This document shows positions 1 through 14,007 of a stretch of 14,007 nt of DNA, piece after piece. Below the pieces are notes generated by a model that saw only the letters and a program-made list of their open reading frames with translations, ran no database searches and had not been told where the DNA came from. The position numbers and the translations under genes are program-made. Numbering within the stretch: position 1 is the stretch's first letter; each line of letters starts with the position of its first letter. The DNA comes from a virus (Duplodnaviria; Heunggongvirae; Uroviricota; Caudoviricetes). Location of the stretch: positions 1-14,007 of IMG/VR virus record IMGVR_UViG_3300028453_000018. The stretch is one strand, 5' to 3'.

Positions 1-357
1 AATGATACGGCGACGCAGCCGCGTTTAAAGCAGGTTGCGCTGTCGGCAATTTCGGAGGTCAACGCAGAGCTGTATGAGTTTCGCAGACGCCAGCAGATGC
101 TGGGATATGCCTCGCTGGCTGAGGTTCCGGCGGAGCAGCTGGACGGCAAAAGTGAGCGCATTCAGCACTATTTCAACGCGGTTTACTGCTGGGCACGCGC
201 CATGCTCAACGAACGATACCAGGACTATGACGCCACGGCATCCGGTGTGAAGCGGGGCGAAGAACTGGCAGAAGCCAGCGGTGATTTGTGGCGTGACGCC
301 CGCTGGGCCATCAGCCGGGTGCAGGATGCGCCGCACTGCACAGTGGAGCTTATCTGA
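1..357 (+). CDS. L: Capsid completion/head stabilisation protein (P2 gpL-like), 3' portion only; the 5' end lies upstream of the window
   Basis: Frame 1 is open from nt 1 to the TGA at 355-357 (the ORF track lists only the part from the first ATG at 97). The stop overlaps the ATG of the next gene (TGATG), and the position immediately upstream of gene X matches P2 synteny. Product assignment is by position and recollection of gpL-like sequence, not by search. Confidence 0.6.
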   Translation, partial: NDTATQPRLKQVALSAISEVNAELYEFRRRQQMLGYASLAEVPAEQLDGKSERIQHYFNAVYCWARAMLNERYQDYDATASGVKRGEELAEASGDLWRDARWAISRVQDAPHCTVELI

Positions 358-560
358 TGAAAGTGCGTGCGCATCAGTATGACACGGTGGACGCGCTTTG
401 CTGGCGTCATTACGGGCGCACGCAGGGTGTCACGGAGCAGGTACTGAAGGCAAATCCGGGGCTTGCCGAATACGGCCCCTTTTTACCTCACGGGCTGCAG
501 GTGGAGCTGCCGGACATTCCGACCACCACCATCGTGCAGACCGTCCAGCTATGGGACTGA
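357..560 (+). CDS. X: Tail protein X (P2 gpX-like, 67 aa)
   Basis: 67-aa ORF, the same length as P2 gpX, coupled to the upstream stop and located between L and the lysis cassette as in P2. Confidence 0.8.
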   Translation: MKVRAHQYDTVDALCWRHYGRTQGVTEQVLKANPGLAEYGPFLPHGLQVELPDIPTTTIVQTVQLWD

Positions 561-563
561 ATT

Positions 564-779
564 ATGACGCTTGAGCGAATCAGCGCCTTTATCACGTATT
601 GCATCGCCGTCGTGCTGGCCTGGCTGGGCGATTTGTCCATCAAGGATGCCTCAACGCTGGGCGGCCTGATGATTGGTGTGCTGATGCTGGCTATCAACTG
701 GTACTACAAACACAAAGCCTACCAGCTTCTGCGCGACGGGCAGATCTCGCGGGAGGACTATGAATCCATCAATCGTTAA
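564..779 (+). CDS. Holin, small two-TMD type (71 aa)
   Basis: 71-aa protein with two hydrophobic helices (ISAFITYCIAVVLAWLG and LGGLMIGVLMLAINWYY) and a charged C-terminus, immediately upstream of and overlapping the endolysin gene. Confidence 0.7.
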   Translation: MTLERISAFITYCIAVVLAWLGDLSIKDASTLGGLMIGVLMLAINWYYKHKAYQLLRDGQISREDYESINR

Positions 780-1272
780 ACGCTGCCTTGTCGGGGCCGT
801 GCTGGCTATTGCTGCCACGCTGCCGGGTTTTCAGCAGCTTCACACCTCCGTGGAGGGGCTGAAACTGATTGCCGATTACGAAGGTTGTCGTCTGCAGCCG
901 TATCAGTGCAGCGCGGGTGTCTGGACCGACGGCATTGGTAATACGTCAGGCGTCATTCCCGGCAAAACCATTACGGAGCGACAGGCAGCAGAAGGGCTGA
1001 TCTCCAACGTGCTGCGTGTGGAGCGGGCGCTGGAAAGGTGTGTGAAGCAACAGCCGCCGCAGAAGGTGTATGACGCTGCGGTGTCGTTTGCCTTCAACGT
1101 GGGAACGGGCAATGCCTGCAGTTCCACGCTGGTGAAATTACTCAATCAGCGGCGCTGGGCAGATGCGTGCCGACAGTTGCCGCGCTGGGTTTATGTGAAA
1201 GGTGTTTTTAATCAGGGGCTGGATAACCGCCGTGCGCGGGAGATGGCCTGGTGCTTACAGGGAGCAAACTGA
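760..1272 (+). CDS. Endolysin, phage lysozyme (T4 E-like fold) with an N-terminal SAR (signal-anchor-release) domain
   Basis: The N-terminus MNPSIVKRCLVGAVLAIAATLPGF is a Gly/Ala-rich weakly hydrophobic segment after KR. It is followed by EGxRLxPYQCxxGVWTxGxGxT, which matches the T4-lysozyme catalytic region E...D/C...T. A good SD (GGGAGG) precedes the ATG at 760. Confidence 0.9.
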   Translation: MNPSIVKRCLVGAVLAIAATLPGFQQLHTSVEGLKLIADYEGCRLQPYQCSAGVWTDGIGNTSGVIPGKTITERQAAEGLISNVLRVERALERCVKQQPPQKVYDAAVSFAFNVGTGNACSSTLVKLLNQRRWADACRQLPRWVYVKGVFNQGLDNRRAREMAWCLQGAN

Positions 1273-1273
1273 A

Positions 1274-1651
1274 ATGAAAAAGAAATTAATCAGCGGACTG
1301 TTTCTGATGTTATGGATGGCGTTGTTAATCGCAGCAATGGTGTATCCGCAGGGGATTTTTCCGGTACTGGCAGCGTCCGGCGTTTGGGTAGCCTGTTTGC
1401 TGACATGGGCGGTAATTCCGGTAGCACTGGCTGCGTTAATTAAGAATGGCCCGCTCTGGCAGGAGTTAAGGGCATCTTTGCTGAAGACAATTACCCGAAA
1501 AGAAAACGTATTTACCAGTTGGGTGATGCGATTGCTGATTGTTGTAAGTCTCGCCTGGACGGGGTGGGCTATTACCCTGGTCTTTTATCTACTGACCGTT
1601 ATTGCCTTCTGGATCACCCGTAATCAGATGGCGCAACAGGTGGCAGCATGA
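1274..1651 (+). CDS. LysA-like small integral membrane protein (putative lysis timing / antiholin-like)
   Basis: Taken from the ATG at 1274 just after the endolysin stop; the ORF track's 1202 start overlaps the endolysin. About 125 aa with several predicted TM helices (LFLMLWMALLIAAMV, VLAASGVWVACLLTWAVIPVALAAL, LLIVVSLAWTGWAITLVFYLLTVIAFWI). The position equals lysA of P2. Confidence 0.65.
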   Translation: MKKKLISGLFLMLWMALLIAAMVYPQGIFPVLAASGVWVACLLTWAVIPVALAALIKNGPLWQELRASLLKTITRKENVFTSWVMRLLIVVSLAWTGWAITLVFYLLTVIAFWITRNQMAQQVAA

Positions 1652-2076
1652 ACCGGTTGCTGCTGGTTGTGCTGGCGTTATTACTGGCGGCGCTGGGCTG
1701 GCAGACGTGGCGGCTGGCTGATGCCAGCCAGACCATCAGCACGCAGGCAGACGAGCTTCGGAGCAAAAGCCAGGCACTGGCAAAGAGCAACAGCCAGCTT
1801 ATCAGCCTGTCCATTCTGACTGAAACCAATAACCGGGAGCAGGCGCGGCTCTATGCCGAAGCAGAACAGACCAGCGCACAGCTGAGACAACGACAACGCC
1901 GGATCGAGGAACTGAAACGTGAGAACGAGGATTTACGCCGCTGGGCTGATACTCCTTTGCCTGCTGACATTATCCGGCTGCGGGAACGTCCGGCACTCAC
2001 CGGAGGTGCAGCTTACCGTCAGTGGTTGTCCGCGAGTGACGCCGTGTCGGCTGGATCAGACAGCGCCGCGCACTAA
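1648..2076 (+). CDS. lysB: i-spanin (Rz-like; P2 LysB-like)
   Basis: N-terminal TM anchor (LLLVVLALLLAALGW) followed by a charged, Q/R/E-rich coiled-coil-like periplasmic domain. The start overlaps the upstream stop (ATGA), and an o-spanin ORF is embedded in the +1 frame. Confidence 0.8.
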   Translation: MNRLLLVVLALLLAALGWQTWRLADASQTISTQADELRSKSQALAKSNSQLISLSILTETNNREQARLYAEAEQTSAQLRQRQRRIEELKRENEDLRRWADTPLPADIIRLRERPALTGGAAYRQWLSASDAVSAGSDSAAH

Positions 2077-2209
2077 CGGTGATCTGAACGCATTGCTGGA
2101 TGAAACGGAGGCCGCCTGGGCGGTCTGTGCAGACAAAGTGGACATGATTATTGCGTGTCAGGAGCGAAACAGTGAACAAACCACAATCCCTGCGCCACGC
2201 CCTCAATAA
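1919..2209 (+). CDS. lysC: o-spanin lipoprotein (Rz1-like; P2 LysC-like)
   Basis: GTG start in the +1 frame inside the 3' end of lysB. Lipoprotein signal peptide with lipobox LTLSG|C, and a Pro/Cys-containing mature region. At 96 aa it equals P2 LysC and extends past the lysB stop. Confidence 0.75.
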   Translation: MRTRIYAAGLILLCLLTLSGCGNVRHSPEVQLTVSGCPRVTPCRLDQTAPRTNGDLNALLDETEAAWAVCADKVDMIIACQERNSEQTTIPAPRPQ

Positions 2210-2603
2210 AGCGGTGCCTTATGTCCGCAATAACCCGGACAAACTGCATCTGTTTGTGGATAACGGTTCGCTGGTTGCCACGGGGGCCAGCTCCATGTCA
2301 TGGGAGTACCGTTACACCCTGAACGCAGTGATTGAGGATTTCAGCGGCGACCAGAATCTGCTGATGGCCCCGGTTATGCTGTGGTTGCGGGATAACCAGC
2401 CCGATGCCATCAATAACCCGGAGTTACGGGAAAAGTTATTCACCTTTGAGGTGGATATTCTGCGCAACGATGTCTGTGATATCAGCCTTAACCTGCAACT
2501 GACAGAGCGTGTGCTGGTCAGCACTGACGGCAGTGTGTCGAACGTTGAAGCGGTAGCGGAACCTGATGAACCTGAAGAAATGTGGACGGTGAAACGTGGC
2601 TGA
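2151..2603 (+). CDS. R: Tail completion protein R (P2 gpR-like)
   Basis: About 150 aa with a gpR-like motif (LHLFVDNGS...), positioned between the lysis genes and S. The start is uncertain: ATG at 2151, or GTG at 2172 preceded by CAGGAGCG; either way it overlaps the end of lysC. Confidence 0.8.
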   Translation: MRVRSETVNKPQSLRHALNKAVPYVRNNPDKLHLFVDNGSLVATGASSMSWEYRYTLNAVIEDFSGDQNLLMAPVMLWLRDNQPDAINNPELREKLFTFEVDILRNDVCDISLNLQLTERVLVSTDGSVSNVEAVAEPDEPEEMWTVKRG

Positions 2604-3042
2604 ATTGCAGAAGGTGGACGACTGGTTGAGTGCCTTGCTGGCGAATCTGGAACCAGCCGCCAGAAGCCGCATGATGCGCCAGCTGGCGCAGGAACTGCGC
2701 CGGACACAGCAGCAGAATATCAGGATGCAGCGCAATCCTGATGGCAGCAGTTATGAACCGCGCAGGGTAACAGCACGCAGCAAGAAGGGGCGCATCAAAC
2801 GTCAGATGTTTGCAAAGCTGCGCACCACAAAATACCTGAAAACTGCCGCCAGCGCCGACTCTGCCAGCGTACAGTTTGAAGGCAAGGTGCAGCGTATTGC
2901 CCGTGTTCACCATTACGGCCTGCGTGATCGCGTCAGTCGCAAAGGACCGGAGGTCCGTTACGCAGAGCGCCGCCTGCTGGGTGTAAATGATGATGTTGAG
3001 GCAATGACCCGCGACATGATTCTGCAATGGCTGGCGGGGTGA
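2596..3042 (+). CDS. S: Tail completion / virion morphogenesis protein S (P2 gpS-like)
   Basis: 148 aa; GTG start at 2596 overlapping the R stop (GTGGCTGA); position and size match P2 gpS. Confidence 0.85.
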   Translation: MAELQKVDDWLSALLANLEPAARSRMMRQLAQELRRTQQQNIRMQRNPDGSSYEPRRVTARSKKGRIKRQMFAKLRTTKYLKTAASADSASVQFEGKVQRIARVHHYGLRDRVSRKGPEVRYAERRLLGVNDDVEAMTRDMILQWLAG

Positions 3043-3046
3043 TCTT

Positions 3047-3064
3047 TGTATCAGCACTGATACA
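3047..3064 (+). promoter_or_regulatory. Candidate Ogr/Delta-type late-promoter activator site (TGT-N12-ACA) upstream of V
   Basis: TGTATCAGCACTGATACA: TGT at 3047-3049, a 12-nt spacer, ACA at 3062-3064, and the whole 18-mer is a near-perfect palindrome. It lies in the 68-bp S-V spacer, where P2 has promoter PV. Confidence 0.55.
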
Positions 3065-3110
3065 AGTTGCAGCACTGCCGCCTTTCTTCCCCTGATGGCA
3101 ACCTTTCCCT

Positions 3111-3689
3111 ATGAACGCACAATTAACCGAAATCATGCGCCTTATCACCAACCTGATCCGCACTGGGGTAGTCACCGAAGTGGACCGGGAAAACTGGCTT
3201 TGTCGGGTGAAAACGGGCGACCTTGAAACCAACTGGATTAACTGGCTGACGCTGCGCGCGGGTAATGCCCGCACATGGTGGAAACCATCGGAAGGTGAGC
3301 AGGTGGTGCTGCTGAGTCTGGGCGGCAATCTGGAGACCGCCTTTGCGCTGCCCGCTGTCTATTCGAATCAGTTCGCACCACCGTCGACGTCGGCGGACGC
3401 CTGCGTGACAGAACATCCTGACGGTGGCTGGTTTGAATACGAACCCGCCACCGGGCGCTGGTATGTCAGGGGCATCAAATCAATGGTCATTGAGGCTGCT
3501 GACAACATCACCCTGAAAACCAGTGAGTTTGTACTGGAGGCTGACCGCACGCGCATTAACAGCGAAGTGGTGATCAATGGTGGCGTTACCCAGGGCGGCG
3601 GAGCGATGAGTTCTAACGGGATCGTGGTTGATGCGCATCAGCATACTGGCGTCCTGAAAGGCGGCGATACAACCGGAGGCCCGGTATGA
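3111..3689 (+). CDS. V: Baseplate spike / assembly protein V (P2 gpV-like)
   Basis: 192 aa, with an N-terminus resembling gpV and a Gly-rich C-terminus (GGDTTGGPV). An in-frame stop lies 18 nt upstream of the ATG, so the start is well defined. Confidence 0.9.
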   Translation: MNAQLTEIMRLITNLIRTGVVTEVDRENWLCRVKTGDLETNWINWLTLRAGNARTWWKPSEGEQVVLLSLGGNLETAFALPAVYSNQFAPPSTSADACVTEHPDGGWFEYEPATGRWYVRGIKSMVIEAADNITLKTSEFVLEADRTRINSEVVINGGVTQGGGAMSSNGIVVDAHQHTGVLKGGDTTGGPV

Positions 3690-4045
3690 CGCTTTATAGT
3701 GGGATGAACAATACCAGCGGCAAAGCCATTACTGATATTGACCATCTGCGCCAGTCGGTGCGGGACATTCTGCTGACGCCGCAGGGTAGCCGCATTGCTC
3801 GCCGTGAATATGGTTCCCTGCTGTCGGCACTGATAGACCAGCCACAAAATCCGGCGTTACGCCTGCAGGTCATGTCGGCAGTGTATGTGGCGCTGAGTCG
3901 CTGGGAGCCACGGCTGACGCTGGATTCCATCACCATTAACAGCAATTTTGACGGTTCAATGGTGGTGGGACTGACTGGGCGGCGTAATAACGGTGTGCCT
4001 GTTTCCCTTTCCGTATCAACAGGAGCAGAGAATGGCAGTGATTGA
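3686..4045 (+). CDS. W: Baseplate wedge protein W (P2 gpW / T4 gp25-like)
   Basis: 119 aa; ATGA overlap with the V stop; GPW/gp25-like sequence and size. Confidence 0.9.
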   Translation: MTLYSGMNNTSGKAITDIDHLRQSVRDILLTPQGSRIARREYGSLLSALIDQPQNPALRLQVMSAVYVALSRWEPRLTLDSITINSNFDGSMVVGLTGRRNNGVPVSLSVSTGAENGSD

Positions 4046-4940
4046 CCTTTCGCAGTTGCCTGCGCCGCAGATTGTCGATGTGCCGGACTTTGAGACGTTG
4101 CTTGCCGAACGCAAGGCCGAATTTGTTGCGCTTCATCCGAAAGATGAGCAGGAAGCAGTGATCCGCACGCTGGAACTGGAATCTGAACCCGTCACCAAAT
4201 TGCTTCAGGAGAACGCTTATCGTGAGTTGCTTCTGCGCCAGCGCATTAACGAAGCCGCGCAGGCGGTGATGGTGGCTTACGCGATGGGCGGCGATCTTGA
4301 CCAGCTCGCTGCTAACTACAACGTGAAACGCCTGACGGTGACACCTGCTGATGATGACGCTGTACCGCCCGTTGCGGCTGTGATGGAAAGTGATGAAGCG
4401 TTACGCCTGCGTGTGCCTGCAGCCTTTGAAGGGCTTTCTGTTGCGGGGCCAACTGCCGCTTATGAGTTTCATGCACGAAGCGCCGACGGTCGGGTGGCGG
4501 ATGCCAGTGCAACCAGTCCGGCACCTGCAGAGGTGGTGCTGACTGTCCTGAGCCGCGAAGGCGATGGAACAGCAGAAAAAGACCTGCTGGACGTGGTGGA
4601 AAAGGCTCTGAACAGTGAGAACGTCCGCCCGGTGGCTGACCGTCTGACGGTTCGCAGCGCAGAAATCATCCCGTACCGCGTGGAAGCTACCATTTTTCTC
4701 TATCCGGGACCGGAAGCAGAGCCGGTAATGGCAGCGGCAAAAGCCAGCCTGCAGAAGTACATCGCCAGTCAGACGCGGCTTGGTCGGGATATTCGCCGTA
4801 GCGCCATCTTTGCCGCCCTGCATGTTGAGGGGGTGCAGCGTGTGGAACTGGCTTCGCCGCTGGCGGATGTGGTCCTGAACAAAACGCAGGCGGCATCATG
4901 TACGCAGTGGAGCGTAACCAACGGAGGAACGGATGAATAG
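4032..4940 (+). CDS. J: Baseplate protein J (P2 gpJ-like)
   Basis: The ORF is open from 3993, but the ATG at 4032 is preceded by AGGAGCAGAG and gives MAVIDLSQLPAP..., matching the conserved gpJ N-terminus as I recall it; about 302 aa. Confidence 0.9.
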   Translation: MAVIDLSQLPAPQIVDVPDFETLLAERKAEFVALHPKDEQEAVIRTLELESEPVTKLLQENAYRELLLRQRINEAAQAVMVAYAMGGDLDQLAANYNVKRLTVTPADDDAVPPVAAVMESDEALRLRVPAAFEGLSVAGPTAAYEFHARSADGRVADASATSPAPAEVVLTVLSREGDGTAEKDLLDVVEKALNSENVRPVADRLTVRSAEIIPYRVEATIFLYPGPEAEPVMAAAKASLQKYIASQTRLGRDIRRSAIFAALHVEGVQRVELASPLADVVLNKTQAASCTQWSVTNGGTDE

Positions 4941-5538
4941 TCTGCTGCCACCGGGTTCAACACCACTGGAGCGCCGATTGGCGCATACGTGCAGCGGGAT
5001 TTCTGATCTGAAGGTGCCGCTGCGTGACTTGTGGAATCCGGCTACCTGTCCGGTCAGCTTCCTGCCTTATCTCGCCTGGGCGTTCTCTGTGGATCGCTGG
5101 GACGAGGGCTGGACAGAAAGCGTCAAACGCCAGGTGGTGAAGGATGCTTTTTATATTCATCAGCATAAAGGGACCACCAGTGCCGTGCGGCGGGTGGTGG
5201 AGCCGTTCGGCTTTCTGATCCGCATTATTGAGTGGTGGCAGACCGGAGAAACACCAGGCACGTTTCGCCTGGATATCGGCGTGCAGGACCAGGGCATCAC
5301 TGAAGATACCTATCTGGAACTTGAGCGGCTGATAAGCGATGCCAAACCATGTAGCCGTCACATGATCGGCATGTCCATCAATCTGCAAACCAGTGGCCCG
5401 CACTGGGTAGGGGCCGCCAGCTATCTTGGCGAAGAAATCACGATCTATCCGTATATCAACGAAACAATTATTTCCGGTGGCACCGCGCATGAAGGCGGGG
5501 CGGTCCATGTTATTGACACAATGAGAGTGAATCCATGA
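4933..5538 (+). CDS. I: Baseplate / tail protein I (P2 gpI-like)
   Basis: 201 aa; overlaps the J stop; position between J and H. Confidence 0.85.
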   Translation: MNSLLPPGSTPLERRLAHTCSGISDLKVPLRDLWNPATCPVSFLPYLAWAFSVDRWDEGWTESVKRQVVKDAFYIHQHKGTTSAVRRVVEPFGFLIRIIEWWQTGETPGTFRLDIGVQDQGITEDTYLELERLISDAKPCSRHMIGMSINLQTSGPHWVGAASYLGEEITIYPYINETIISGGTAHEGGAVHVIDTMRVNP

Positions 5539-7058
5539 GCACAAAATTTTATACCCTGCTGACGGATATTGGTGCGGCGAAACTTGCCAGCGCCGCCGCG
5601 CTCGGTGTGCCGCTAAAAATTACCCATATGGCGGTGGGCGATGGCGGCGGAGTATTGCCAACGCCGGACGCAAAGCAGACGGCACTGGTAAATGAGAAAC
5701 GCCGGGCTGCGCTGAATATGCTTTATATCGACCCGCAGAACAGCAGCCAGATTATTGCTGAACAGGTGATCCCTGAAAACGAGGGCGGTTGGTGGATACG
5801 TGAAGTGGGCCTGTTTGATGAGTCCGGGGCATTGATTGCCGTGGGCAACTGCCCGGAAAGCTATAAGCCGCAACTGGCTGAAGGCAGCGGGCGCACCCAG
5901 ACCGTGCGCATGGTGCTGATTACCAGCAGTACGGACAATATCACCCTGAAAATCGATCCTGCTGTAGTGCTGGCAACCCGCAAGTATGTGGATGACAAGG
6001 CACTGGAGCTGAAGGTGTACGTGGATGACCTGATGGCAAAACATCTTGCCGCACTGGACCCGCATTCACAGTATGCACCCAAAGAAAGTCCAACGTTTAC
6101 CGGAACCCCCAAAGCGCCAACGCCAGCGGCGGGGAATAATACCACGCAGCTTGCGACCACCGCGTTTGTTCAGGCGGCACTCACGGCCCTTATTAATGGT
6201 GCGCCAGCCACGCTGGACACGCTGAAAGAAATAGCCGCAGCCATTAACAATGATCCGAATTTCAGTACCACCATTAACAATGCGCTGGCACAAAAAGCGC
6301 CGCTGTCGAGTCCGGCACTCACCGGAACGCCAACAGCACCTACTGCGGCACAGTCGGTCAACAATACACAGATTGCCACTACAGCTTTTGTGAAATCAGC
6401 GATTGCAGCAATGGTGGGTTCTGCACCCGCGGCACTGGATACACTGAACGAACTGGCGGCGGCACTGGGGAATGATCCGAACTTTGCCACGACAATGCTT
6501 AATGCGCTGGCAGGTAAACAACCGCTGGACAATACGCTTACCAATTTGAGTGGAAAGGATGTAGCTGGTCTTCTCGCATACCTTGGTTTGGGAGAAGGTG
6601 CTCCAGCTATTGGCGTTCCGTTCTTCTGGCCGTCCGCTGCAATGCCAAATACTGTAATCGACAGCTGGTCCAGTATGGTGTTTTTGAAGTTCAACGGGGC
6701 GAAATTTTCTGCCACTGATTACCCTGTGCTGGCGAAAGTGTTTCCTGCGCTGGTATTACCTGAAGCCCGCGGTGATTTCATTCGTATCTGGGATGACGGG
6801 CGAGGTGTAGACGGTGGTCGCACGTTGTTAAGCGCACAGGACTTTGCTCAGCAGCGTATAACAGGGGATTTCATGGGGGGAGCTATGGGTAGCTCTGGCT
6901 CAATAAAAGCGGGTGCACTTGTTAATTCTTACACCAATTACGGTGCTGGATCTCAGGATTTGCAGTATTTCTCTATTGATAGTGCCATTGAAACGAAAAC
7001 TGCAAGTGAAACACGTCCTCGTAATATCGCGTTTAACTTTCTGGTGAGGGCTAAATAA
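5535..7058 (+). CDS. H: Tail fiber protein H (P2 gpH-like), with a conserved N-terminal baseplate-attachment region, internal tandem repeats and a C-terminal tail-collar-type domain
   Basis: 507 aa. The N-terminus (MSTKFYTLLTDIGAAKLA...MAVGDGGG...) matches the conserved gpH N-terminus as I recall it. Two roughly 70-aa repeat units occur (TGTPxAPTxA...NNTQxATTAFV...LDTLxExAAAxxNDPNF...). The C-terminus carries a collar-like motif (DYPVLAKVF...LPEARGDFIRIWDDGRGVDGGR). Confidence 0.9.
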   Translation: MSTKFYTLLTDIGAAKLASAAALGVPLKITHMAVGDGGGVLPTPDAKQTALVNEKRRAALNMLYIDPQNSSQIIAEQVIPENEGGWWIREVGLFDESGALIAVGNCPESYKPQLAEGSGRTQTVRMVLITSSTDNITLKIDPAVVLATRKYVDDKALELKVYVDDLMAKHLAALDPHSQYAPKESPTFTGTPKAPTPAAGNNTTQLATTAFVQAALTALINGAPATLDTLKEIAAAINNDPNFSTTINNALAQKAPLSSPALTGTPTAPTAAQSVNNTQIATTAFVKSAIAAMVGSAPAALDTLNELAAALGNDPNFATTMLNALAGKQPLDNTLTNLSGKDVAGLLAYLGLGEGAPAIGVPFFWPSAAMPNTVIDSWSSMVFLKFNGAKFSATDYPVLAKVFPALVLPEARGDFIRIWDDGRGVDGGRTLLSAQDFAQQRITGDFMGGAMGSSGSIKAGALVNSYTNYGAGSQDLQYFSIDSAIETKTASETRPRNIAFNFLVRAK

Positions 7059-7651
7059 TGAAACCTGTTTTTGATGAAAATGGGCTGGCTACAGTGCCGG
7101 GCGATATGCGTTGTTTTTATTATGATGCTGAAACATCTGAGTATACGGGTTGGTCTGATGAATATATTAATACTGGCGTAAGTATGCCCGCCTGTTCCAC
7201 TGGTATTGACCCTGGCGAAAACATTCCGGGAAAAGTGGCTGTATTTACAGGTAAGGGATGGAGCCATGAAGAGGACCATCGCAATGAGACTGTTTACTCA
7301 ATCGAAAATGGCGCAACTGTTACAGTGGATTATATCGGTGCCATCAAAAACGGTTATGTCACGCTTTCACCGTTAACGCCATACGATAAATGGGATGGTG
7401 AGAAATGGGTGACGGATACTGAAATACAACATCGCGCCGCAGTAGAAGCGGCAGAAACACAGCGTCGGTCACTGATTGATACTGCAATGGCTTCCGTTAG
7501 TTTGGTTCAACTGAAATTACGGGTCGGAAGAAAATTAACTGATGCAGAAACAGTAAAACTTAATGCTGTTCTTGACTACATTGACGCAGTGACGGCAACA
7601 GATTTCAGCACAGCCCCTGATATTAACTGGCCCAAACTACCAGAATTTTAA
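7058..7651 (+). CDS. G: Tail fiber assembly chaperone G (P2 gpG / Tfa-like)
   Basis: 197 aa; start overlaps the H stop (TAATG); position directly after H; lower GC than the surrounding genes, as is typical of the host-range module. Confidence 0.8.
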   Translation: MKPVFDENGLATVPGDMRCFYYDAETSEYTGWSDEYINTGVSMPACSTGIDPGENIPGKVAVFTGKGWSHEEDHRNETVYSIENGATVTVDYIGAIKNGYVTLSPLTPYDKWDGEKWVTDTEIQHRAAVEAAETQRRSLIDTAMASVSLVQLKLRVGRKLTDAETVKLNAVLDYIDAVTATDFSTAPDINWPKLPEF

Positions 7652-7658
7652 ATTCCTG

Positions 7659-7681
7659 CCCCGCGCCTGCGGGGATTTTTT
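7659..7681 (+). terminator. Rho-independent terminator after G
   Basis: GC stem CCCCGC (7659-7664) / GCGGGG (7669-7674) with a 4-nt loop, followed by TTTTTT (7676-7681), 8 nt after the G stop codon. Confidence 0.65.
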
Positions 7682-7692
7682 CACCCCGTCGT

Positions 7693-7710
7693 TGTGCCAT
7701 TTTCCATACA
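7693..7710 (+). promoter_or_regulatory. Candidate Ogr/Delta-type late-promoter activator site (TGT-N12-ACA) upstream of FI
   Basis: TGTGCCATTTTCCATACA: TGT at 7693-7695, a 12-nt spacer, ACA at 7708-7710. Its centre is about 85 nt upstream of the FI ATG; the FI ATG has a GGAGAG SD. Confidence 0.5.
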
Positions 7711-7785
7711 AACCCCATCGCGTGCACCCTGCGTGTATCAACCAGAACATAGACAGACCCCCTCTACAACCGGAGAGACTGCCTT

Positions 7786-8958
7786 ATGGCTCAGGATTAC
7801 CACCACGGGGTGCGCGTTGTTGAAGTCAACGAAGGCACCCGATCCATTACCACGGTGAGCACCGCCATCGTGGGCATGGTCTGCACGGGCGATGATGCCG
7901 ATGCAAAAATGTTTCCTCTTAATAAACCCGTGCTGATCACTGATGTACTGACCGCCAGCGGTAAAGCGGGTGAGTCCGGCACGCTGGCCCGTTCGCTGGA
8001 TGCCATCGCTGACCAGGCAAAACCCGTGACCGTTGTTGTGCGTGTGCCGCAGGGTGAAACGGAAGAAGAAACCACGACTAATATCATCGGCGCAGTGACC
8101 GCTGAAGGTAAAAAAACAGGTATGAAAGCCCTGTTATCTGCCCAGACACAGCTCGGCGTTAAACCGCGCATTCTCGGCGTGCCAGGTCACGATAACAAAG
8201 CCGTTGCGACTGAGTTGCTGAGCGTGGCGCAAAGCCTGCGTGGGTTTGCTTACCTGTCAGCGTATGGCTGCAAGACGGTACAGGAGGCGATCACTTACCG
8301 TGAAAACTTCAGCCAGCGCGAAGGGATGCTGATCTGGCCTGACTTTACTGGCTGGGACACGGTGCTGAATGCCGAAGCAACGGCATATGCCACCGCCCGT
8401 GCGCTCGGTCTGCGCGCCAAAATTGATGAGCAGACGGGGTGGCACAAGAGCCTGTCCAACGTAGGTGTGAACGGTGTCACCGGAATTTCTGCTGATGTGT
8501 TCTGGGATTTGCAGGACCCGGCAACCGATGCAGGTCTGCTGAACCAGAACGACGTCACCACACTTGTGCGTAAAGACGGCTTCCGCTTCTGGGGTTCCCG
8601 CTGCCTGAGTGATGACCCGCTCTTTGCCTTCGAAAACTACACCCGCACGGCGCAGGTGCTGATGGACACGATGGCAGAAGCACACATGTGGGCGGTGGAT
8701 AAACCTCTTAACCCGTCGCTGGCGCGCGACATTATCGAAGGTATCCGCGCCAAAATGCGCAGCCTGGTCAGTCAGGGGTATCTCATTGGTGGTGATTGCT
8801 GGCTGGACGAGTCGGTGAACGACAAAGACACGCTGAAAGCCGGAAAACTCACCATCGACTACGACTACACGCCAGTGCCGCCACTTGAAAACCTGATGCT
8901 GCGTCAGCGCATCACCGATCAGTACCTGGTGAATTTCGCCAGCCAGGTCAGCGCGTAA
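7786..8958 (+). CDS. FI: Contractile tail sheath protein FI
   Basis: 390 aa (P2 FI is about 396 aa); follows a terminator, promoter motif and SD; position before the tube gene. Confidence 0.95.
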
Positions 8959-8967
8959 GGGGACAAC

Positions 8968-9483
8968 ATGGCTTTACCACGCAAATTAAAACACCTGAAC
9001 CTGTTTAACGACGGGAACAACTGGCAGGGGATCGTTGAATCGCTGACGCTGCCGAAATTCACCCGCAAATATGAGAAATATCGCGGCGGCGGAATGCCGG
9101 GTGCAGTGGATGTGGATCTGGGGCTTGATGACAGTGCGCTGGACACAGAATTTTCCATTGGTGGTACTGAACTGCTGCTGTTTAAGCAGATGGGCAAAGC
9201 CACTGTGGATGGCATCCAGCTGCGCTTTACCGGCTCTATCCAGCGTGACGATACCGGGGAAGTGCAGGCCGTGGAGCTTGTGGTGCGTGGTCGTCACAAA
9301 GAAGTGGATTCCGGCGAGTGGAAGACGGGCGAAAGTAACACCACCAAAGTGACCAGTACCAACAGCTACGCGAAGCTGACCATCAATGGTGAGGTGCTCT
9401 ATGAAGTGGACCTTATCAACATGGTGGAAATTGTGGACGGAGTGGACCTGATGGAAGCGCACCGCAACGCCCTTGGCCTCTGA
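8968..9483 (+). CDS. FII: Tail tube protein FII
   Basis: 171 aa (P2 FII is about 172 aa), 9 nt after the sheath stop, with SD GGGGACAAC. Confidence 0.95.
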   Translation: MALPRKLKHLNLFNDGNNWQGIVESLTLPKFTRKYEKYRGGGMPGAVDVDLGLDDSALDTEFSIGGTELLLFKQMGKATVDGIQLRFTGSIQRDDTGEVQAVELVVRGRHKEVDSGEWKTGESNTTKVTSTNSYAKLTINGEVLYEVDLINMVEIVDGVDLMEAHRNALGL

Positions 9484-9537
9484 AGTATCTGAACGGCGCG
9501 GGATTCCGCGCCAGAACCCAATTTACAGGACAACAAA

Positions 9538-9840
9538 ATGAGCGATAAGCAGACTGAAAAGACCATTCAACTGGATACCCCCATCATGCGCGGTAAAACA
9601 GAAATTACCGAAATTGTGTTGCGTAAACCGCAGTCCGGTGCGCTGCGTGGCACACGCCTGCAGGCCATTATGGATATGGATGTGAACGCGATGATGACTG
9701 TGATCCCCCGCATCTCCAGTCCGGCACTGACTGCACAGGAAATCGCAGAGATGGACCCGGCAGATCTCACTGCCATGTCGGTTGAGGTTGTCACTTTTTT
9801 GTTGAAGAAGTCGGTGCTTGCCGGTTTACCGACAGCCTGA
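9538..9840 (+). CDS. E: Tail assembly chaperone E
   Basis: 100-aa ORF between the tube and tape measure genes; it contains the slippery T6G heptamer at 9795-9801 near its 3' end. Confidence 0.85.
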   Translation: MSDKQTEKTIQLDTPIMRGKTEITEIVLRKPQSGALRGTRLQAIMDMDVNAMMTVIPRISSPALTAQEIAEMDPADLTAMSVEVVTFLLKKSVLAGLPTA

Positions 9841-9974
9841 CGGTTGACGATCTGGTGGCAGATATCGCCACCATTTTTCACTGGCCGCCATCCGTTACTG
9901 ACGTTATGCCGCTGACCGAAGTGCTGGAATGGCGGTATAAAGCGATTCAGAGAAGCGGGGCCAACGATGAGTGA
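9538..9974 (+). CDS. E': Tail assembly chaperone E' (E+E' fusion made by a programmed -1 ribosomal frameshift at 9795-9801)
   Basis: The slippery sequence T TTT TTG lies in the E zero frame at 9795-9801. The -1 frame is open from 9801 for 57 codons (VEEVGACRFTDSLTVDDLVADIATIFHWPPSVTDVMPLTEVLEWRYKAIQRSGANDE) and ends at TGA 9972-9974, overlapping the T start codon at 9967. The predicted product is about 145 aa (P2 E+E' is about 142 aa). Confidence 0.7.
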
Positions 9975-12726
9975 TAACAACCTGCGGCTGCAGGTCATTC
10001 TTAATGCGGTTGACAAACTCACCCGCCCATTCCGTGCTGCACAGGCCAGTTCGAAAGAGCTGGCTGGCGCAATCAGAAACTCCCGTGACGCATTAAAGCA
10101 ACTCAATCAGGCGGGTAACAGCCTGGAAAAATTTCGCAAGCTGCAGGCCGATAACAAGAAGTTAGGCGACAGGCTGAACTATGCCAGACAGAAGGCTAAT
10201 TTGCTTAGCTCTGAGCTGGAGGCGATGGAACAACCATCACAACGGCACCTTGTGGCTTTAGGTCGGCAAACGCTGGCAGTCCAACGCCTGGAAGAACAAC
10301 AAAAATATTTGCAGAAGCAAACGGCGCTTGTGCGTGCAGAACTGTACCGGGCGGGAATTTCTGCGAAAGATGATGCGGGAGCAACTGCCCGTTTAGCCCG
10401 TGAAACATCACGTTATAACCAGGAATTGTCGAAACAGGAGGCGCGGCTGAAGCGACTGGGTGAAGCTCAGCGCAGGATGAATGCGGCGCGTGCCAGTTAT
10501 GCCCGTTCGCTGGAGGTGCGCGATCGTATTGCAGGTGCCGGAGCCACTACCACGGCTGCAGGTCTGGCAATGGGGACGCCAGTGATGGCGGCAGTAAAAA
10601 GCTATACCAGCATGGAAGATGCCATGAAAGGTGTGGCAAAGCAGGTCAATGGTCTGCGTGACGATAATGGCAACCGCACTGCACGTTTTTATGAAATGCA
10701 GGATGCCATCAAGGCTGCCAGCGAACAGTTGCCGATGGAAAAAGGTGCGGTGGACTTCGCTGCACTGGTTGAAGGTGGTGCGCGCATGAACGTCGCAAAC
10801 CCTGACGACAGCTGGGAAGACCAGAAACGTGATCTGCTGGCCTTCGCCAGCACGGCGGCAAAGGCGGCAACAGCCTTTGAGCTGCCAGCGGATGAACTGT
10901 CAGAAAGTCTGGGAAAAATCGCCCAGCTCTACAAAATCCCTACCCGCAATATTGAACAGCTCGGTGATGCGCTGAACTATCTGGATGATAACGCCATGTC
11001 GAAAGGGGCAGACATCATTGATGTGATGCAACGCCTGGGCGGTGTGGCTGATCGTCTGGATTATCGTAAAGCGGCGGCGCTGGGTTCCACCTTCCTGACA
11101 CTGGGTGCTGCGCCGGAGGTTGCAGCCAGTGCAGCAAACGCGATGGTGCGTGAGTTGTCCATTGCCACCATGCAAAGCAAGAGTTTCTTTGAAGGGATGA
11201 ATCTGCTGAAACTCAATCCTGAAGTGATTGAAAAGCAGATGACGAAGGATGCGATGGGAACCATCCAGCGCGTGCTGGAGAAGGTGAACGCACTGCCGCA
11301 GGACAAGCGTCTGTCTGCCATGACCATGTTGTTTGGTAAAGAGTTTGGTGATGACGCGGCGAAACTGGCAAACAACCTGCCGGAACTGCAGCGCCAGCTA
11401 AAACTGACAGCGGGCAATGATGCGCTCGGTTCCATGCAGAAAGAATCCGACATCAACAAAGACTCACTTTCTGCTCAGTGGTTGCTGGTCAAAACCGGAG
11501 CGCAGAACACCTTCAGCAGCCTGGGTGAAACGCTGCGCCAGCCGCTGATGGATATTCTGTACACGGTGAAAAGCATCACGGGAGCGTTGCGCCGCTGGAT
11601 GGAAGCTAACCCGGAACTGACAGGCACACTGATGAAAGTAGCGGCTGTTGTGGCTGCGGTTACCGTAGGCCTCGGCACCTTAGCGGTGGCGCTGGCTGCA
11701 GTGCTGGGGCCGCTGGCAGTCATCCGTCTGGGATTCTCTGTGCTGGGTATCAAAACGTTACCTTCCGTTACGGCAGCAGTAACACGAACCAGCAGCGCGT
11801 TGTCCTGGTTAGCTGGCGCTCCACTGGCACTGCTGCGACGCGGGCTTGCTTCATCGGGCAACGCAGCGGGTTTACTTACTGCGCCGTTGTCGTCTTTGCG
11901 CCGCACGGCATCACTGACGGGGAATGTCCTGAAAACTGTAGCAGGTGTGCCGGTTGCACTGTTGCGGTCTGGATTATCCGGTTTACGTGCTGTTGCTGTG
12001 ATGTTTATGAATCCTCTGGCGGTACTGCGCGGTGGACTGTCTGCCGCAGGCGCGGTGCTGCGAGTACTGGCATCCGGTCCGCTGGCGATGCTGCGCGTTG
12101 CCCTGTATGCCATATCTGGTCTGTTAGGTGCTCTGCTCAGTCCGATAGGTCTTGTGGTTACTGCACTGGCGGGTGTGGCGCTGGTTGTCTGGAAATACTG
12201 GCAACCCATCACCGCATTTCTCGGTGGCGTGGTGGAAGGATTCAAAGCGTCGACAGGTCCCATCAGTGCTGCATTCGAACCACTTAAGCCTGTGTTTCAG
12301 TGGATTGGCGACAAAGTGCAGGCGTTGTGGGGTTGGTTTACTGATCTGCTGACGCCTGTTAAGTCGACCTCTGCTGAACTGCAGAGCGCAGCGGCAATGG
12401 GGCGACGATTCGGGGAGGCTCTGGCGGAGGGGCTGAATATGGTCATGCATCCGCTGGACTCCCTGAAATCCGGTGTTTCCTGGTTGCTGGATAAACTCGG
12501 CATTGTCAGTAAAGAAGCTGCAAAGGCGAAACTGCCGGAAAGCGTGACGCGTCAGCAACCTGCGACGGTGAATGCAGACGGTAAAGTGATGATGCCATCG
12601 GGTGGTTTTCCATCATGGGGATATGGCTTTGCGGGGATGTATGACAGCGGCGGCTATATCCCGCGCGGGCAGTTTGGCATCGTCGGTGAAAACGGGCCGG
12701 AAATTGTTAACGGCCGGCAAATGTGA
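9967..12726 (+). CDS. T: Tail tape measure protein T, N-terminal 919 codons, ending at an apparently premature in-frame TGA
   Basis: Long ORF with an alpha-helical, Q/A/R/E-rich N-terminal half and a hydrophobic repeat region (PLALLRRGL, PVALLRSGL, PLAVLRGGL, PLAMLRVAL), sitting between E' and U as in P2. The frame stops at 12724-12726, but the coding signal continues in the -1 frame. Confidence 0.85.
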   Translation: MSDNNLRLQVILNAVDKLTRPFRAAQASSKELAGAIRNSRDALKQLNQAGNSLEKFRKLQADNKKLGDRLNYARQKANLLSSELEAMEQPSQRHLVALGRQTLAVQRLEEQQKYLQKQTALVRAELYRAGISAKDDAGATARLARETSRYNQELSKQEARLKRLGEAQRRMNAARASYARSLEVRDRIAGAGATTTAAGLAMGTPVMAAVKSYTSMEDAMKGVAKQVNGLRDDNGNRTARFYEMQDAIKAASEQLPMEKGAVDFAALVEGGARMNVANPDDSWEDQKRDLLAFASTAAKAATAFELPADELSESLGKIAQLYKIPTRNIEQLGDALNYLDDNAMSKGADIIDVMQRLGGVADRLDYRKAAALGSTFLTLGAAPEVAASAANAMVRELSIATMQSKSFFEGMNLLKLNPEVIEKQMTKDAMGTIQRVLEKVNALPQDKRLSAMTMLFGKEFGDDAAKLANNLPELQRQLKLTAGNDALGSMQKESDINKDSLSAQWLLVKTGAQNTFSSLGETLRQPLMDILYTVKSITGALRRWMEANPELTGTLMKVAAVVAAVTVGLGTLAVALAAVLGPLAVIRLGFSVLGIKTLPSVTAAVTRTSSALSWLAGAPLALLRRGLASSGNAAGLLTAPLSSLRRTASLTGNVLKTVAGVPVALLRSGLSGLRAVAVMFMNPLAVLRGGLSAAGAVLRVLASGPLAMLRVALYAISGLLGALLSPIGLVVTALAGVALVVWKYWQPITAFLGGVVEGFKASTGPISAAFEPLKPVFQWIGDKVQALWGWFTDLLTPVKSTSAELQSAAAMGRRFGEALAEGLNMVMHPLDSLKSGVSWLLDKLGIVSKEAAKAKLPESVTRQQPATVNADGKVMMPSGGFPSWGYGFAGMYDSGGYIPRGQFGIVGENGPEIVNGRQM

Positions 12727-13043
12727 CCAGCCGGAGAAATACAGCTGCACTGGCTGCCGTTGTTGCCGGAATGATGGGCGTTGCTGCCGCGCCAGCAGAG
12801 CTTCCACCGTTGCACCCTTTGGCACTTCCCGCGAAAGGTGGAGAAGCGATGGTGAGTCGCGCAGCCACTGTGCCGCTCGTTCAACGGATTGAGGCACCGA
12901 CGCAGATCATCATTCAGACGCAGCCAGGACAAAGTGCGCAGGATATTGCGCGGGAGGTGGCACGCCAGCTTGATGAACGTGAACGCAGGCTGAAGGCAAA
13001 AGCCAGGAGTAACTACAGCGATCAGGGGGGATACGACGCATGA
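12711..13043 (+). CDS. T: Probable C-terminal segment of tape measure protein T in the -1 frame (frameshifted or pseudogenised 3' end)
   Basis: This frame is open from 12711, just after a TAA at 12708-12710, to TGA 13041-13043, and its stop overlaps the U start codon (ATGA at 13040-13043) in the way P2 junctions do. The T frame and this frame overlap only across 12711-12723. Confidence 0.6.
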   Translation, partial: RPANVTSRRNTAALAAVVAGMMGVAAAPAELPPLHPLALPAKGGEAMVSRAATVPLVQRIEAPTQIIIQTQPGQSAQDIAREVARQLDERERRLKAKARSNYSDQGGYDA

Positions 13044-13525
13044 TGATGGTGCTGGGATTGTACGTGTTTATGCTGCGCACCGTTCCGTATCAGGAACTGC
13101 AGTATCAACGCAGCTGGCGACATGCGGCAAACAGTCGGGTAAACCGACGTCCGTCCACGCAATTTCTGGGACCGGAAAACGACATGCTGACGCTTTCCGG
13201 TGTTCTTATGCCGGAGATAACAGGCGGCAGGCTGTCGTTGCTGGCACTGGAGCAGATGGCAGAACAGGGGAAAGCATGGCCCCTGATTGAAGGCAGCGGC
13301 ACGATTTACGGCATGTATGTGATTGAGGGACTGAATCAGACTAAAACGGAGTTTTTCCGCGACGGTATGCCGCGCCGGATTGAGTTCACCCTGTCGCTCA
13401 AACGAGTCGATGAATCCCTGTCCGATATGTTCGGTGATCTCAGTGCGCAACTGAATAATCTGCAGGACACGGCAACGTCTGCCTTAAGCGATATCAGTAA
13501 AACGGTGGGAGGGCTGCTGTCGTGA
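13040..13525 (+). CDS. U: Tail protein U (P2 gpU-like)
   Basis: 161 aa (P2 gpU is about 159 aa); position after T; stop overlaps the GTG of the next gene. Confidence 0.9.
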   Translation: MMMVLGLYVFMLRTVPYQELQYQRSWRHAANSRVNRRPSTQFLGPENDMLTLSGVLMPEITGGRLSLLALEQMAEQGKAWPLIEGSGTIYGMYVIEGLNQTKTEFFRDGMPRRIEFTLSLKRVDESLSDMFGDLSAQLNNLQDTATSALSDISKTVGGLLS

Positions 13526-14007
13526 ATTTCAGCTCTGAACTGCTTAACAAAGGCAACAAAACTCCCGCATTCAGCATCAGTATTGAGGGCAGGGATATCA
13601 CCACTGTGCTGGATAACCGCCTGATGAGTTTGACGCTGACGGATAACCGGGGCTTTGAAGCGGACCAGCTTGATCTGGAGTTGGATGACGCTGACGGAAA
13701 AATCGTGCTGCCGCGCCGTGGTGCGGTCATTACGCTGGCGCTGGGCTGGAAGGGGCAGCCGCTTTTCCCGAAAGGGGCATTCACAGTGGACGAGATTGAA
13801 CACACTGGCGCACCGGACCGCCTGACTATCCGGGCGCGAAGTGCTGATTTTCGGGAAACGCTGAATACCCGCCGTGAAAAATCGTGGCATAAGACCACCG
13901 TCGGGGAAGTGGTGAAGGAAATAGCCGCGCGGCACAAGCTGAAGATGGCACTGGGAAAAGACCTGCCGTCACTCTCATTAGTCTGGTGTATATGCTCCAC
14001 GGGCTTA
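13522..14007 (+). CDS. D: Tail protein D (late control gene D family), 5' portion only; continues beyond the window
   Basis: GTG at 13522 overlaps the U stop (GTGA). The frame is open to the window end (VNFSSELLNKGNKTPAFSISIEGRDITTVLDNRLMSLTLTDNRGFEADQLDLELDDADGK...), the position after U matches P2, and the N-terminal motif resembles the Phage_GPD family. Confidence 0.75.
   Translation, partial: MNFSSELLNKGNKTPAFSISIEGRDITTVLDNRLMSLTLTDNRGFEADQLDLELDDADGKIVLPRRGAVITLALGWKGQPLFPKGAFTVDEIEHTGAPDRLTIRARSADFRETLNTRREKSWHKTTVGEVVKEIAARHKLKMALGKDLPSLSLVWCICSTGL

Follow-up and report, generated by a model that had tools for sequence, protein, structure and literature searches.

Phage endolysins that carry an N-terminal signal-anchor-release (SAR) domain fall into two classes. 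According to a recent preprint (bioRxiv 10.64898/2026.09.09.750462, citing Kuty 2010), class I is marked by a Cys at the catalytic position and another within the SAR domain, whereas class II has the triad E-D-T and lacks a SAR Cys. The prototype of class I is Lyz of phage P1, the structure of which is available in an active form (1XJT) and an inactive form (1XJU). In P1 Lyz, the catalytic Cys is kept in a disulfide until activation (PMC3556154), and the Dsb system serves in modifying the SAR domain (PMC9239132). Signal peptidase does not cleave off the signals of Lyz and of R21, the endolysin of phage 21; both enzymes are set free when the proton-motive force collapses (PMC6116005). Much closer to the endolysin described here is KP12.peg.319 (98% identical, in the same cassette position), a relative that is already labelled P1 Lyz-like with a SAR domain: it has been modelled onto 1XJT (TM-align 0.83), has been termed P1 Lyz-like in structure with a conserved SAR domain, and has been purified and found to be lytic in spot tests (PMC9902359). 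That publication makes no mention of the cysteine triad or of tests of caging for KP12.peg.319.

The DNA analysed here (the window) is a stretch of 14,007 nucleotides from a virus of the Caudoviricetes, positions 1 to 14,007 of the IMG/VR record IMGVR_UViG_3300028453_000018. It includes an ATG-started open reading frame (ORF) on the + strand, the 170-aa translation of which is identical to the endolysin sequence quoted in an earlier note on this DNA. The genes around it are as follows:

357-560: gpX (PF05489)
564-779, + strand: holin of 71 aa with two hydrophobic segments, a candidate pinholin (PF16080, HP1 holin family, E 4.3e-9; phrog_20; RefSeq 'HP1 family phage holin')
760-1272, + strand: endolysin gene, 170 aa plus stop, a GH24/T4-type lysozyme that belongs by its sequence with P1 Lyz in class I of the SAR endolysins (ORF; PF00959; matches to 1xjt)
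1274-1651, + strand: LysA-like multi-pass membrane protein of 125 aa, a putative lysis-timing accessory (annotation of ON470620; phrog_162; NF038378; strongly hydrophobic segments)
1648-2076, + strand: LysB, an Rz-like i-spanin with an N-terminal transmembrane domain (TMD) (phrog_89, E 2.6e-46; annotation)
1919-2209, + strand: LysC, an Rz1-like o-spanin, overlapping lysB (PF23793 LysC, E 1.9e-15; phrog_952; lipobox)
downstream of LysC: gpR and gpS (annotation)

The order of these genes is that of the P2 late operon, i.e., X - holin - endolysin - lysA - lysB - lysC - R - S, and from 3.1 to 14 kb of the window the sizes and order of the ORFs are those usual for P2 tail genes. The cassette is a Fels-2/P2-like lysis cassette of a prophage; its HP1-family holin, its LysA and its two spanins, LysB and LysC, stand in P2 late-operon order, in agreement with the P2-like cassette that the earlier note had suggested. 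The 5′ end of the endolysin gene shares 20 nt with the 3′ end of the holin ORF, and the lipobox of LysC (L-S-G-C) occupies residues 18-21 of its GTG-started ORF. The holin has a sub-threshold Pfam match to the P21 holin S (23.2 bits versus a cutoff of 26); BLASTP of the holin against an S21 sequence gave no similarity. A small holin with two TMDs adjoining a SAR endolysin is one mark of a pinholin-SAR endolysin cassette, and this arrangement is found here; if the holin is a pinholin, it would make small depolarising pinholes in place of large holes. Two distant Cys-type SAR homologues (L083 and L084) also have a PF16080 holin directly upstream. Fusion ORFs of endolysin and LysA (277-296 aa) also exist, with frameshifts at several different G-runs. 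As biological products, these fusions were set aside, because frameshifts at differing G-runs look like errors or pseudogenes.

The single Pfam domain in the endolysin is Phage_lysozyme (PF00959; E 4.6e-40, 137 bits versus a cutoff of 22.3), and the label given to the protein in the databases is "lysozyme" only. When the sequence was compared with PDB chains using HMMER, the top match was P1 Lyz (1xjt_A, E 2e-26; 1xju_A, E 5e-25), behind which stood R21 (3hde/3hdf), RrrD of DLP12 (4zpu) and the lysozymes of P22 and T4, all PDB matches being GH24 lysozymes. In BLASTP, the endolysin and P1 Lyz are 37% identical (E 1e-33). The likeness between the two proteins is, as judged from these alignments, homology and not chance. 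The features within the endolysin gene on which the comparison depends are:

760-831, + strand: putative SAR domain, residues 1-24, an n-region MNPSIVKR followed by the weakly hydrophobic core CLVGAVLAIAATLPGF (hydropathy; G/A/S/T content; model)
784-786, + strand: codon of Cys9 (TGC), the SAR-domain thiol and proposed attacker of the inhibitory disulfide (conservation across SAR-bearing homologues)
874-1242, + strand: Phage_lysozyme (GH24) catalytic domain, residues 39-161 (Pfam envelope)
880-882, + strand: codon of Glu41, the catalytic Glu (T4 lysozyme E11, P1 E42; HMMER, BLASTP and MAFFT alignments)
886-888, + strand: codon of Cys43, putative partner in the caging disulfide (P1 C44; P1 alignment, MAFFT and conservation in close family members)
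907-909, + strand: codon of Cys50, at the catalytic Asp position (T4 lysozyme D20, P1 C51; BLASTP with T4 lysozyme and HMMER alignment with P1)
925-927, + strand: codon of Thr56, third member of the triad (T4 lysozyme T26, P1 T57; HMMER, BLASTP and MAFFT alignments)
1039-1254, + strand: span of four further cysteines that are invariant in the family, C94 (1039-1041), C120 (1117-1119), C137 (1168-1170) and C165 (1252-1254)

The endolysin contains the motif E41-G-C43-R-L-Q-P-Y-Q-C50-S-A-G-V-W-T56. In the HMMER alignment, its block ADYEGCRLQPYQCSAGVWTDGIGNT faces the P1 Lyz block GNAEGCRRDPYMCPAGVWTDGIGNT, and the two proteins have EGCR..PY.C.AGVWTDGIGNT in common. The P1 residues facing E41, C43, C50 and T56, counted along the 1xjt chain from the alignment, are E42, C44, C51 and T57, and the SAR Cys of P1 is C13; the P1 numbering that the earlier note had given (Cys13, Glu42, Cys44, Cys51, Thr57) is therefore correct, and a literature search on the residue numbers Cys13/Cys44/Cys51 returned nothing relevant. 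The BLASTP alignment with T4 lysozyme opens at E41 = E11 and continues ungapped through C50 = D20 and T56 = T26, so that E41/C43/C50/T56 of the endolysin correspond to E11/L13/D20/T26 of T4 lysozyme without a gap, and the triad E-8X-C-5X-T is present with a second Cys two residues past the Glu. No alternative Asp in register with D20 of T4 lysozyme was found in the endolysin in the alignments with T4 lysozyme and P1 Lyz. As the two alignments are ungapped, Cys50 occupies the catalytic Asp column, as the note had claimed, and there is no Asp in register. The note had also stated that the spacing of the key residues mirrors that of P1 Lyz almost residue for residue. This is true of E41, C43, C50 and T56, which match without a gap; it is not true of Cys9, which is 32 residues before the Glu (29 in P1) and lies outside the pairwise block, the endolysin C9 and P1 C13 falling in one column in the MAFFT alignment.

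An exhaustive HMMER search over 50%-identity representatives gave 16,508 relatives, of which the best 150 were analysed. The MAFFT set comprised the endolysin, 11 SAR-bearing representatives of the Cys type (35-56% identity), P1 Lyz, the Asp-type SAR enzymes R21 and P0211, and T4 lysozyme. C9, C43 and C50 are kept in all 13 Cys-type SAR proteins of this alignment; within residues 1-40 the only invariant positions are M1 and C9, and the downstream invariant positions are E41, C43, Y48, C50 and T56. R21, P0211 and T4 lysozyme have no equivalent of any of the three cysteines. Thus, the comparisons with P1 Lyz and R21 that the note had proposed as checks give P1 Lyz as the best match and R21 as an Asp-type enzyme without the triad of cysteines. 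Of 22 close family members, all but one carry Cys43, the exception (P0089) having Gly43.

The SAR-bearing relatives that have the C..C pair were also considered as non-redundant lineages (≤60% identity across the N-terminus plus the catalytic region), and the SAR Cys is present in the proteins as called in 12 of 15. In two of the three exceptions, an in-frame upstream ATG in their own DNA restores an N-terminus that includes the Cys (MKKALTKTVCS... and MKNQKMIGTCM...); in the third, an in-frame ...KKSICSV is present upstream and is linked to an ATG through a run of seven A, where eight would be needed. The three exceptions thus proved to be miscalls of start codon or assembly, and once these are corrected, every one of the 15 lineages has a Cys in that third of the SAR segment which is N-terminal and closest to the cytoplasm.

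Among the non-redundant relatives without a SAR segment, 18 of 31 carry a Cys in place of the Asp, and in 8 of these 18 the C..C pair is complete. Since a Cys at the Asp position is frequent in SAR-less GH24 relatives, Cys50 alone is not evidence of caging, and it was rejected as a marker of redox caging by itself; in the same way, the occurrence of the C43/C50 pair in eight SAR-less relatives means that the pair alone is no proof of caging. What is diagnostic is the triad of cysteines together with the SAR segment. The endolysin has seven cysteines altogether (9, 43, 50, 94, 120, 137 and 165), and 94-120 and 137-165 are putative periplasmic structural disulfide pairs. These extra pairs (137 + 165; 94 + 120 or 90 + 116) co-occur only in SAR-bearing homologues, which is consistent with folding in the oxidising periplasm. 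A search of IMG/VR with a 5-sequence alignment gave 80 loci, which were useless as a contrast set because all are 96-100% identical.

The N-terminal segment has 23 uncharged residues behind K7-R8, with a hydrophobic core of 16 residues (C9-F24). The fraction of G/A/S/T in this core is 0.44, compared with 0.53 in the SAR domain of P1 Lyz, 0.65 in that of R21, and 0.24-0.35 in the TMDs of the holin and LysB from the same cassette. The best summed insertion energy over 19 residues is +5.5 for the endolysin, +0.5 for P1, +0.8 for R21 and -3.2 for the LysA TMD, and over 17 residues, a length suited to the shorter TMDs, it is +3.1 for the endolysin, -0.6 for the holin TMD and -0.8 for the LysB TMD; these sums, on the scale of Hessa 2005, are crude and ignore position dependence. 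By composition and hydropathy, the N-terminus is SAR-like, at the short and weak end of the range. The earlier note had described a Gly/Ala-rich, weakly hydrophobic SAR domain containing Cys9. The G/A/S/T content and the flanking KR fit that description, with the qualification that the core is shorter and weaker than those of P1 and R21.

The predicted structure includes this segment. An AlphaFold (AF2) model from a 54-sequence alignment had a pLDDT of 94 and a pTM of 0.88, and replaced a poor model (pLDDT 65) from a 22-sequence alignment (80-99% identity). In the model, residues 11-30 (pLDDT 94-97) form two short helices, and residues 11-26 are packed against the catalytic domain. When the model was compared with the PDB using Foldseek, 1xjt ("active form of P1 phage endolysin Lyz") came first, with a TM of 0.86 over 173 columns, SAR segment included, followed by R21 (3hde) and RrrD (4zpu), whereas the SAR-less inactive form of P1 Lyz, 1xju, gives a TM of just 0.58. 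Because it matches the full-length active form, the model resembles the enzyme after release and refolding, when the SAR segment belongs to the globular body.

By the published criteria, a catalytic Cys together with a SAR Cys places the endolysin in class I. It has a GH24 domain, a Cys at the Asp position, a second Cys (C43, equivalent to P1 C44) and a Cys in the SAR segment. It also has the N-terminal arrangement of class I (basic residues followed by a weak, charge-free TMD rich in G/A/S/T), at the low end of the range, as its core is weaker and shorter than those of P1 and R21. The characteristics of class II, i.e., of the R21 type, are not those found: C50 replaces the Asp of E-D-T, and C9 is in the SAR segment. 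Thus, every sequence-level criterion supports placing the endolysin with P1 Lyz in class I. What the data show directly is homology, the register of the catalytic residues, the three cysteines and their conservation together with the SAR segment, as well as the match in fold and the surroundings of the gene.

The way in which such an enzyme would act can be set out by analogy with P1 Lyz, from which we infer, by homology, the export, non-cleavage and tethering of the endolysin, its two disulfide states and the role of the holin. The host Sec system would export the endolysin, and the uncleaved N-terminal segment would serve as a weak type II signal anchor. In the tethered state, Cys9 would be out of reach at the cytoplasmic edge of the bilayer, and the periplasmic Dsb system would close a disulfide between Cys43 and Cys50, thereby occupying the catalytic Cys (the equivalent of Asp20 in T4 lysozyme); the tethered enzyme would thus be restrained in three ways, through its location, its conformation and a covalent bond. 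Upon triggering, the adjoining HP1-family holin would collapse the proton-motive force, and the SAR segment would exit the membrane and pack onto the catalytic domain. The thiol of Cys9 would then attack Cys43, giving a Cys9-Cys43 disulfide and a free Cys50, and the active muramidase would degrade the cell wall, after which the LysB/LysC spanins would disrupt the outer membrane. We consider it probable, with good confidence, that this is how the endolysin of this Fels-2/P2-like prophage works: uncleaved export, tethering, C43-C50 caging, release by the holin, isomerisation by C9 and completion of lysis by the spanins.

Because the core of the putative SAR domain is short and weak, the main rival to this reading is an ordinary cleavable Sec signal peptide, in which case the endolysin would be a soluble periplasmic lysozyme like Lys44 of the Oenococcus phage fOg44, and Cys9 would be lost with the leader. 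A hydrophobic core of 13-16 residues behind a KR n-region would also suit the h-region of an ordinary signal peptide, there is an AxA motif (A16-I17-A18), and the SAR domains of P1 and R21 have more favourable summed insertion energies. However, P1 Lyz likewise has an AxA (A14-I15-A16), yet it is reported to be uncleaved (PMC6116005). No conserved signal-peptidase site was found across the homologues: the candidate -1/-3 columns (18, 19 and 23) are not kept as small residues and are taken up in homologues by bulky or charged ones, with M, R, F, Y, I, E and Q among them. Further, Cys9 is invariant at 35-56% identity while all of its neighbours vary, which is hard to explain in a leader that is discarded; the AF2 model packs residues 11-26 onto the catalytic domain with high pLDDT, as in full-length active P1 Lyz; and a C43-C50 cage would have no built-in release without Cys9. 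A cleavable signal peptide is accordingly judged very improbable, in line with the earlier note, which had favoured a SAR domain.

The two other rivals concern the cysteines and the start codon. If control were like that of R21 (class II), i.e., via topology and refolding only, the cysteines would be catalytic (C50) or incidental, and there would be no inhibitory C43-C50 disulfide. Such control would be in keeping with the natural Gly43 variant and with the SAR-less relatives that carry a Cys at the Asp position or even the C43/C50 pair, as the pair would then predate SAR control or be independent of it. It fits poorly with the finding that all 15 SAR-bearing lineages of the Cys type have C9, C43 and C50 together whereas the Asp-type SAR enzymes have none of them, and with the fact that the closest homologue, P1 Lyz, cages with exactly a triad of the C9/C43/C50 type; we regard it as very improbable. 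The start codon matters since the GenBank entry ON470620 annotates a GTG start at 799, and the resulting protein of 157 aa would be a cytoplasmic endolysin requiring a large-hole holin. This is hardly credible: GGGAGGA stands before the ATG at 760, homologues of 80-93% identity conserve residues 1-13 at the protein level, while distant ones again show the KR-C motif, most database entries for the endolysin are of 169-171 aa, and even the 157-aa form would begin within the hydrophobic segment.

Returning to the SAR endolysin caged by its cysteines, there is a variant of this reading in which the emphasis differs. With a SAR core that is unusually short and weak, and with the thiol at its outermost edge on the cytoplasmic side, tethering to the membrane may be leaky, and the Fels-2-like family could be a redox-first rather than a topology-first variant of the P1 paradigm, with the C43-C50 cage as the dominant brake on lysis timing. 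In such a variant, the conserved adjoining LysA membrane protein might modulate release, and the periplasm-specific structural disulfides (94-120 and 137-165) would leave exactly one regulatory thiol. We consider this variant possible but unlikely.

The endolysin is an ordinary and very widespread member of a class that was defined in 2005-2010, with no new mechanism, and the finding adds no new principle to the biology of phage lysis. Its value is more practical. Of 5426 complete E. coli genomes, 1031 (~19%, or about 1 in 5) carry the holin-endolysin pair, some of them at 100% identity, and the pair is also present in many prophages of Klebsiella and Salmonella; in the E. coli genomes the annotation is "lysozyme" and "HP1 family phage holin" only. 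Given the class I identity, start-codon calls that remove Cys9 are wrong, and in recombinant use the full-length protein would be expected to be toxic or membrane-bound, with activity dependent on redox conditions, which bears on projects with KP12-type endolysins. The identity of the class also informs how lysis timing may be controlled in Fels-2-like prophages.

The most closely related systems are those of the Fels-2-like Peduoviridae (Fels-2, SopEPhi, RE2010, 4LV2017, KP12 and 500465-1), which carry this gene in a cassette of identical make-up, the proteins being 92-98% identical, and show essentially no difference: the DNA of the cassette is 97-98% identical to that of the Klebsiella phages 4LV2017 and KP12 and the Escherichia phage 500465-1, and the endolysin protein is 92% identical to those of Fels-2, SopEPhi and RE2010. 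The closest relative of solved structure, P1 Lyz, has the same GH24 fold as the endolysin described here, also has 7 cysteines, keeps the counterparts of C137 and C165, and has a Cys within the N-terminal third of a weakly hydrophobic N-terminal segment of the uncleaved type (a type that is predicted for the endolysin). In contrast to P1 Lyz, the endolysin has a shorter hydrophobic core (16 versus ~19 residues) with fewer Gly, has its SAR Cys right behind the KR n-region and further from the catalytic Glu, is without the 11-residue insertion that P1 Lyz has after FNxG, and has its middle pair of cysteines at 94/120 rather than 91/118. The genes also differ in their setting, in that the endolysin is part of a compact holin-endolysin-LysA-spanin cassette, whereas lyz of P1 is unlinked to lydA/lydB.

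The class II SAR enzymes, R21 of phage 21 (3HDE/3HDF) and RrrD of DLP12 (4ZPU), share the GH24 fold, the N-terminal SAR segment and the equivalents of C137 and C165, and are paired with a small class II holin, as is the endolysin here; R21 differs in having the canonical E-D-T, no SAR Cys and no Cys adjoining the Glu, and is controlled through refolding only. A further variation is Lyz103 of the Erwinia phage ERA103, reportedly (Kuty et al. 2010) a SAR endolysin whose catalytic Glu is caged and in which a thiol of the SAR domain brings about activation by isomerisation of disulfides. The inhibitory disulfide of Lyz103 is reported to flank this Glu, with Asp retained in the triad, whereas here the Cys at the catalytic position would itself be the caged residue. 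Finally, gpK of P2 has the same position in a P2-type late operon as the endolysin described here, but it is not a GH24 SAR lysozyme. As P2 K is related to the R endolysin of lambda (PMC6139136), the holin-endolysin module here differs from that of P2, i.e., the module has been swapped within an otherwise P2-like order of genes.

In addition to the cysteines at positions 9, 43 and 50, the endolysin, a GH24 lysozyme, has four further cysteines, as follows:

1039-1254 (+ strand): C94, C120, C137 and C165 of the endolysin

In an alignment of GH24 homologues, cysteine is near-universal at positions 137 and 165 among those bearing a signal-anchor-release (SAR) segment, including R21 and P0211, which have Asp at the catalytic position, and both cysteines are missing from all 21 of the 21 SAR-less homologues. 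Cysteine at position 9 belongs to the SAR segment itself. There are three database proteins (L083:556-650, L084:400-460 and L085:535-650) which seemed to be SAR enzymes with the C..C motif but lacking the SAR cysteine; they are start-site miscalls, as in-frame upstream sequence gives back a basic n-region and the cysteine. In L084, a homopolymer error is likely, because a run of seven A residues separates the ATG from the reading frame. The endolysin in GenBank ON470620 is annotated from an internal GTG (window position 799; 157 aa), which cuts off the n-region and Cys9; most other records start at the ATG at 760.

The proposed cage is a disulfide between C43 and C50. A close homologue from Dryocola sp. 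(P0089; 87% identity, four member sequences) has Gly at residue 43, with C9 and C50 kept; this natural variant would be without that cage. The motif E-G-C-x6-C is also found in many SAR-less, apparently cytoplasmic GH24 lysozymes of the homologue set (e.g. P0163, P0180, P0212, P0248). Disulfide caging is impossible in the reducing cytoplasm. The motif in these SAR-less enzymes may be the ancestor of the SAR-regulated form, or its relic.

Of 5426 complete E. coli genomes, 1031 carry the holin-endolysin pair (window 564-1272), almost always in the chromosome and in at most three copies per genome. Exact (100%) matches among them mark the window as most probably an E. coli prophage. Downstream, the LysA frame is already open from 1202, within the endolysin gene (1202-1274). 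Many database ORFs of 277-296 aa, some in complete NCBI genomes, are endolysin-LysA fusions, which arise by single-G deletions in several different G-runs within ~30 nt of the 3' end of the endolysin gene; these probably reflect sequencing error or prophage decay. The o-spanin LysC (1919-2209) is best taken to start with the GTG at 1919; read this way, it has a lipoprotein signal with the lipobox L-S-G-C at its end. A shorter ORF of 56 aa, starting near 2036, is all that some records annotate.

The remaining cysteines of SAR-bearing homologues fall into alternative co-occurring pairs (94+120 or 90+116), the other alternatives being a short loop bounded by cysteines at 150-151 or none at all. 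From the alignment, these pairs and 137+165 look like periplasm-specific structural disulfides, leaving over the odd triad of C9, C43 and C50. The pair 94+120 is that of the endolysin's own family, and 90+116 corresponds to C91+C118 of P1 Lyz, also occurring in others.
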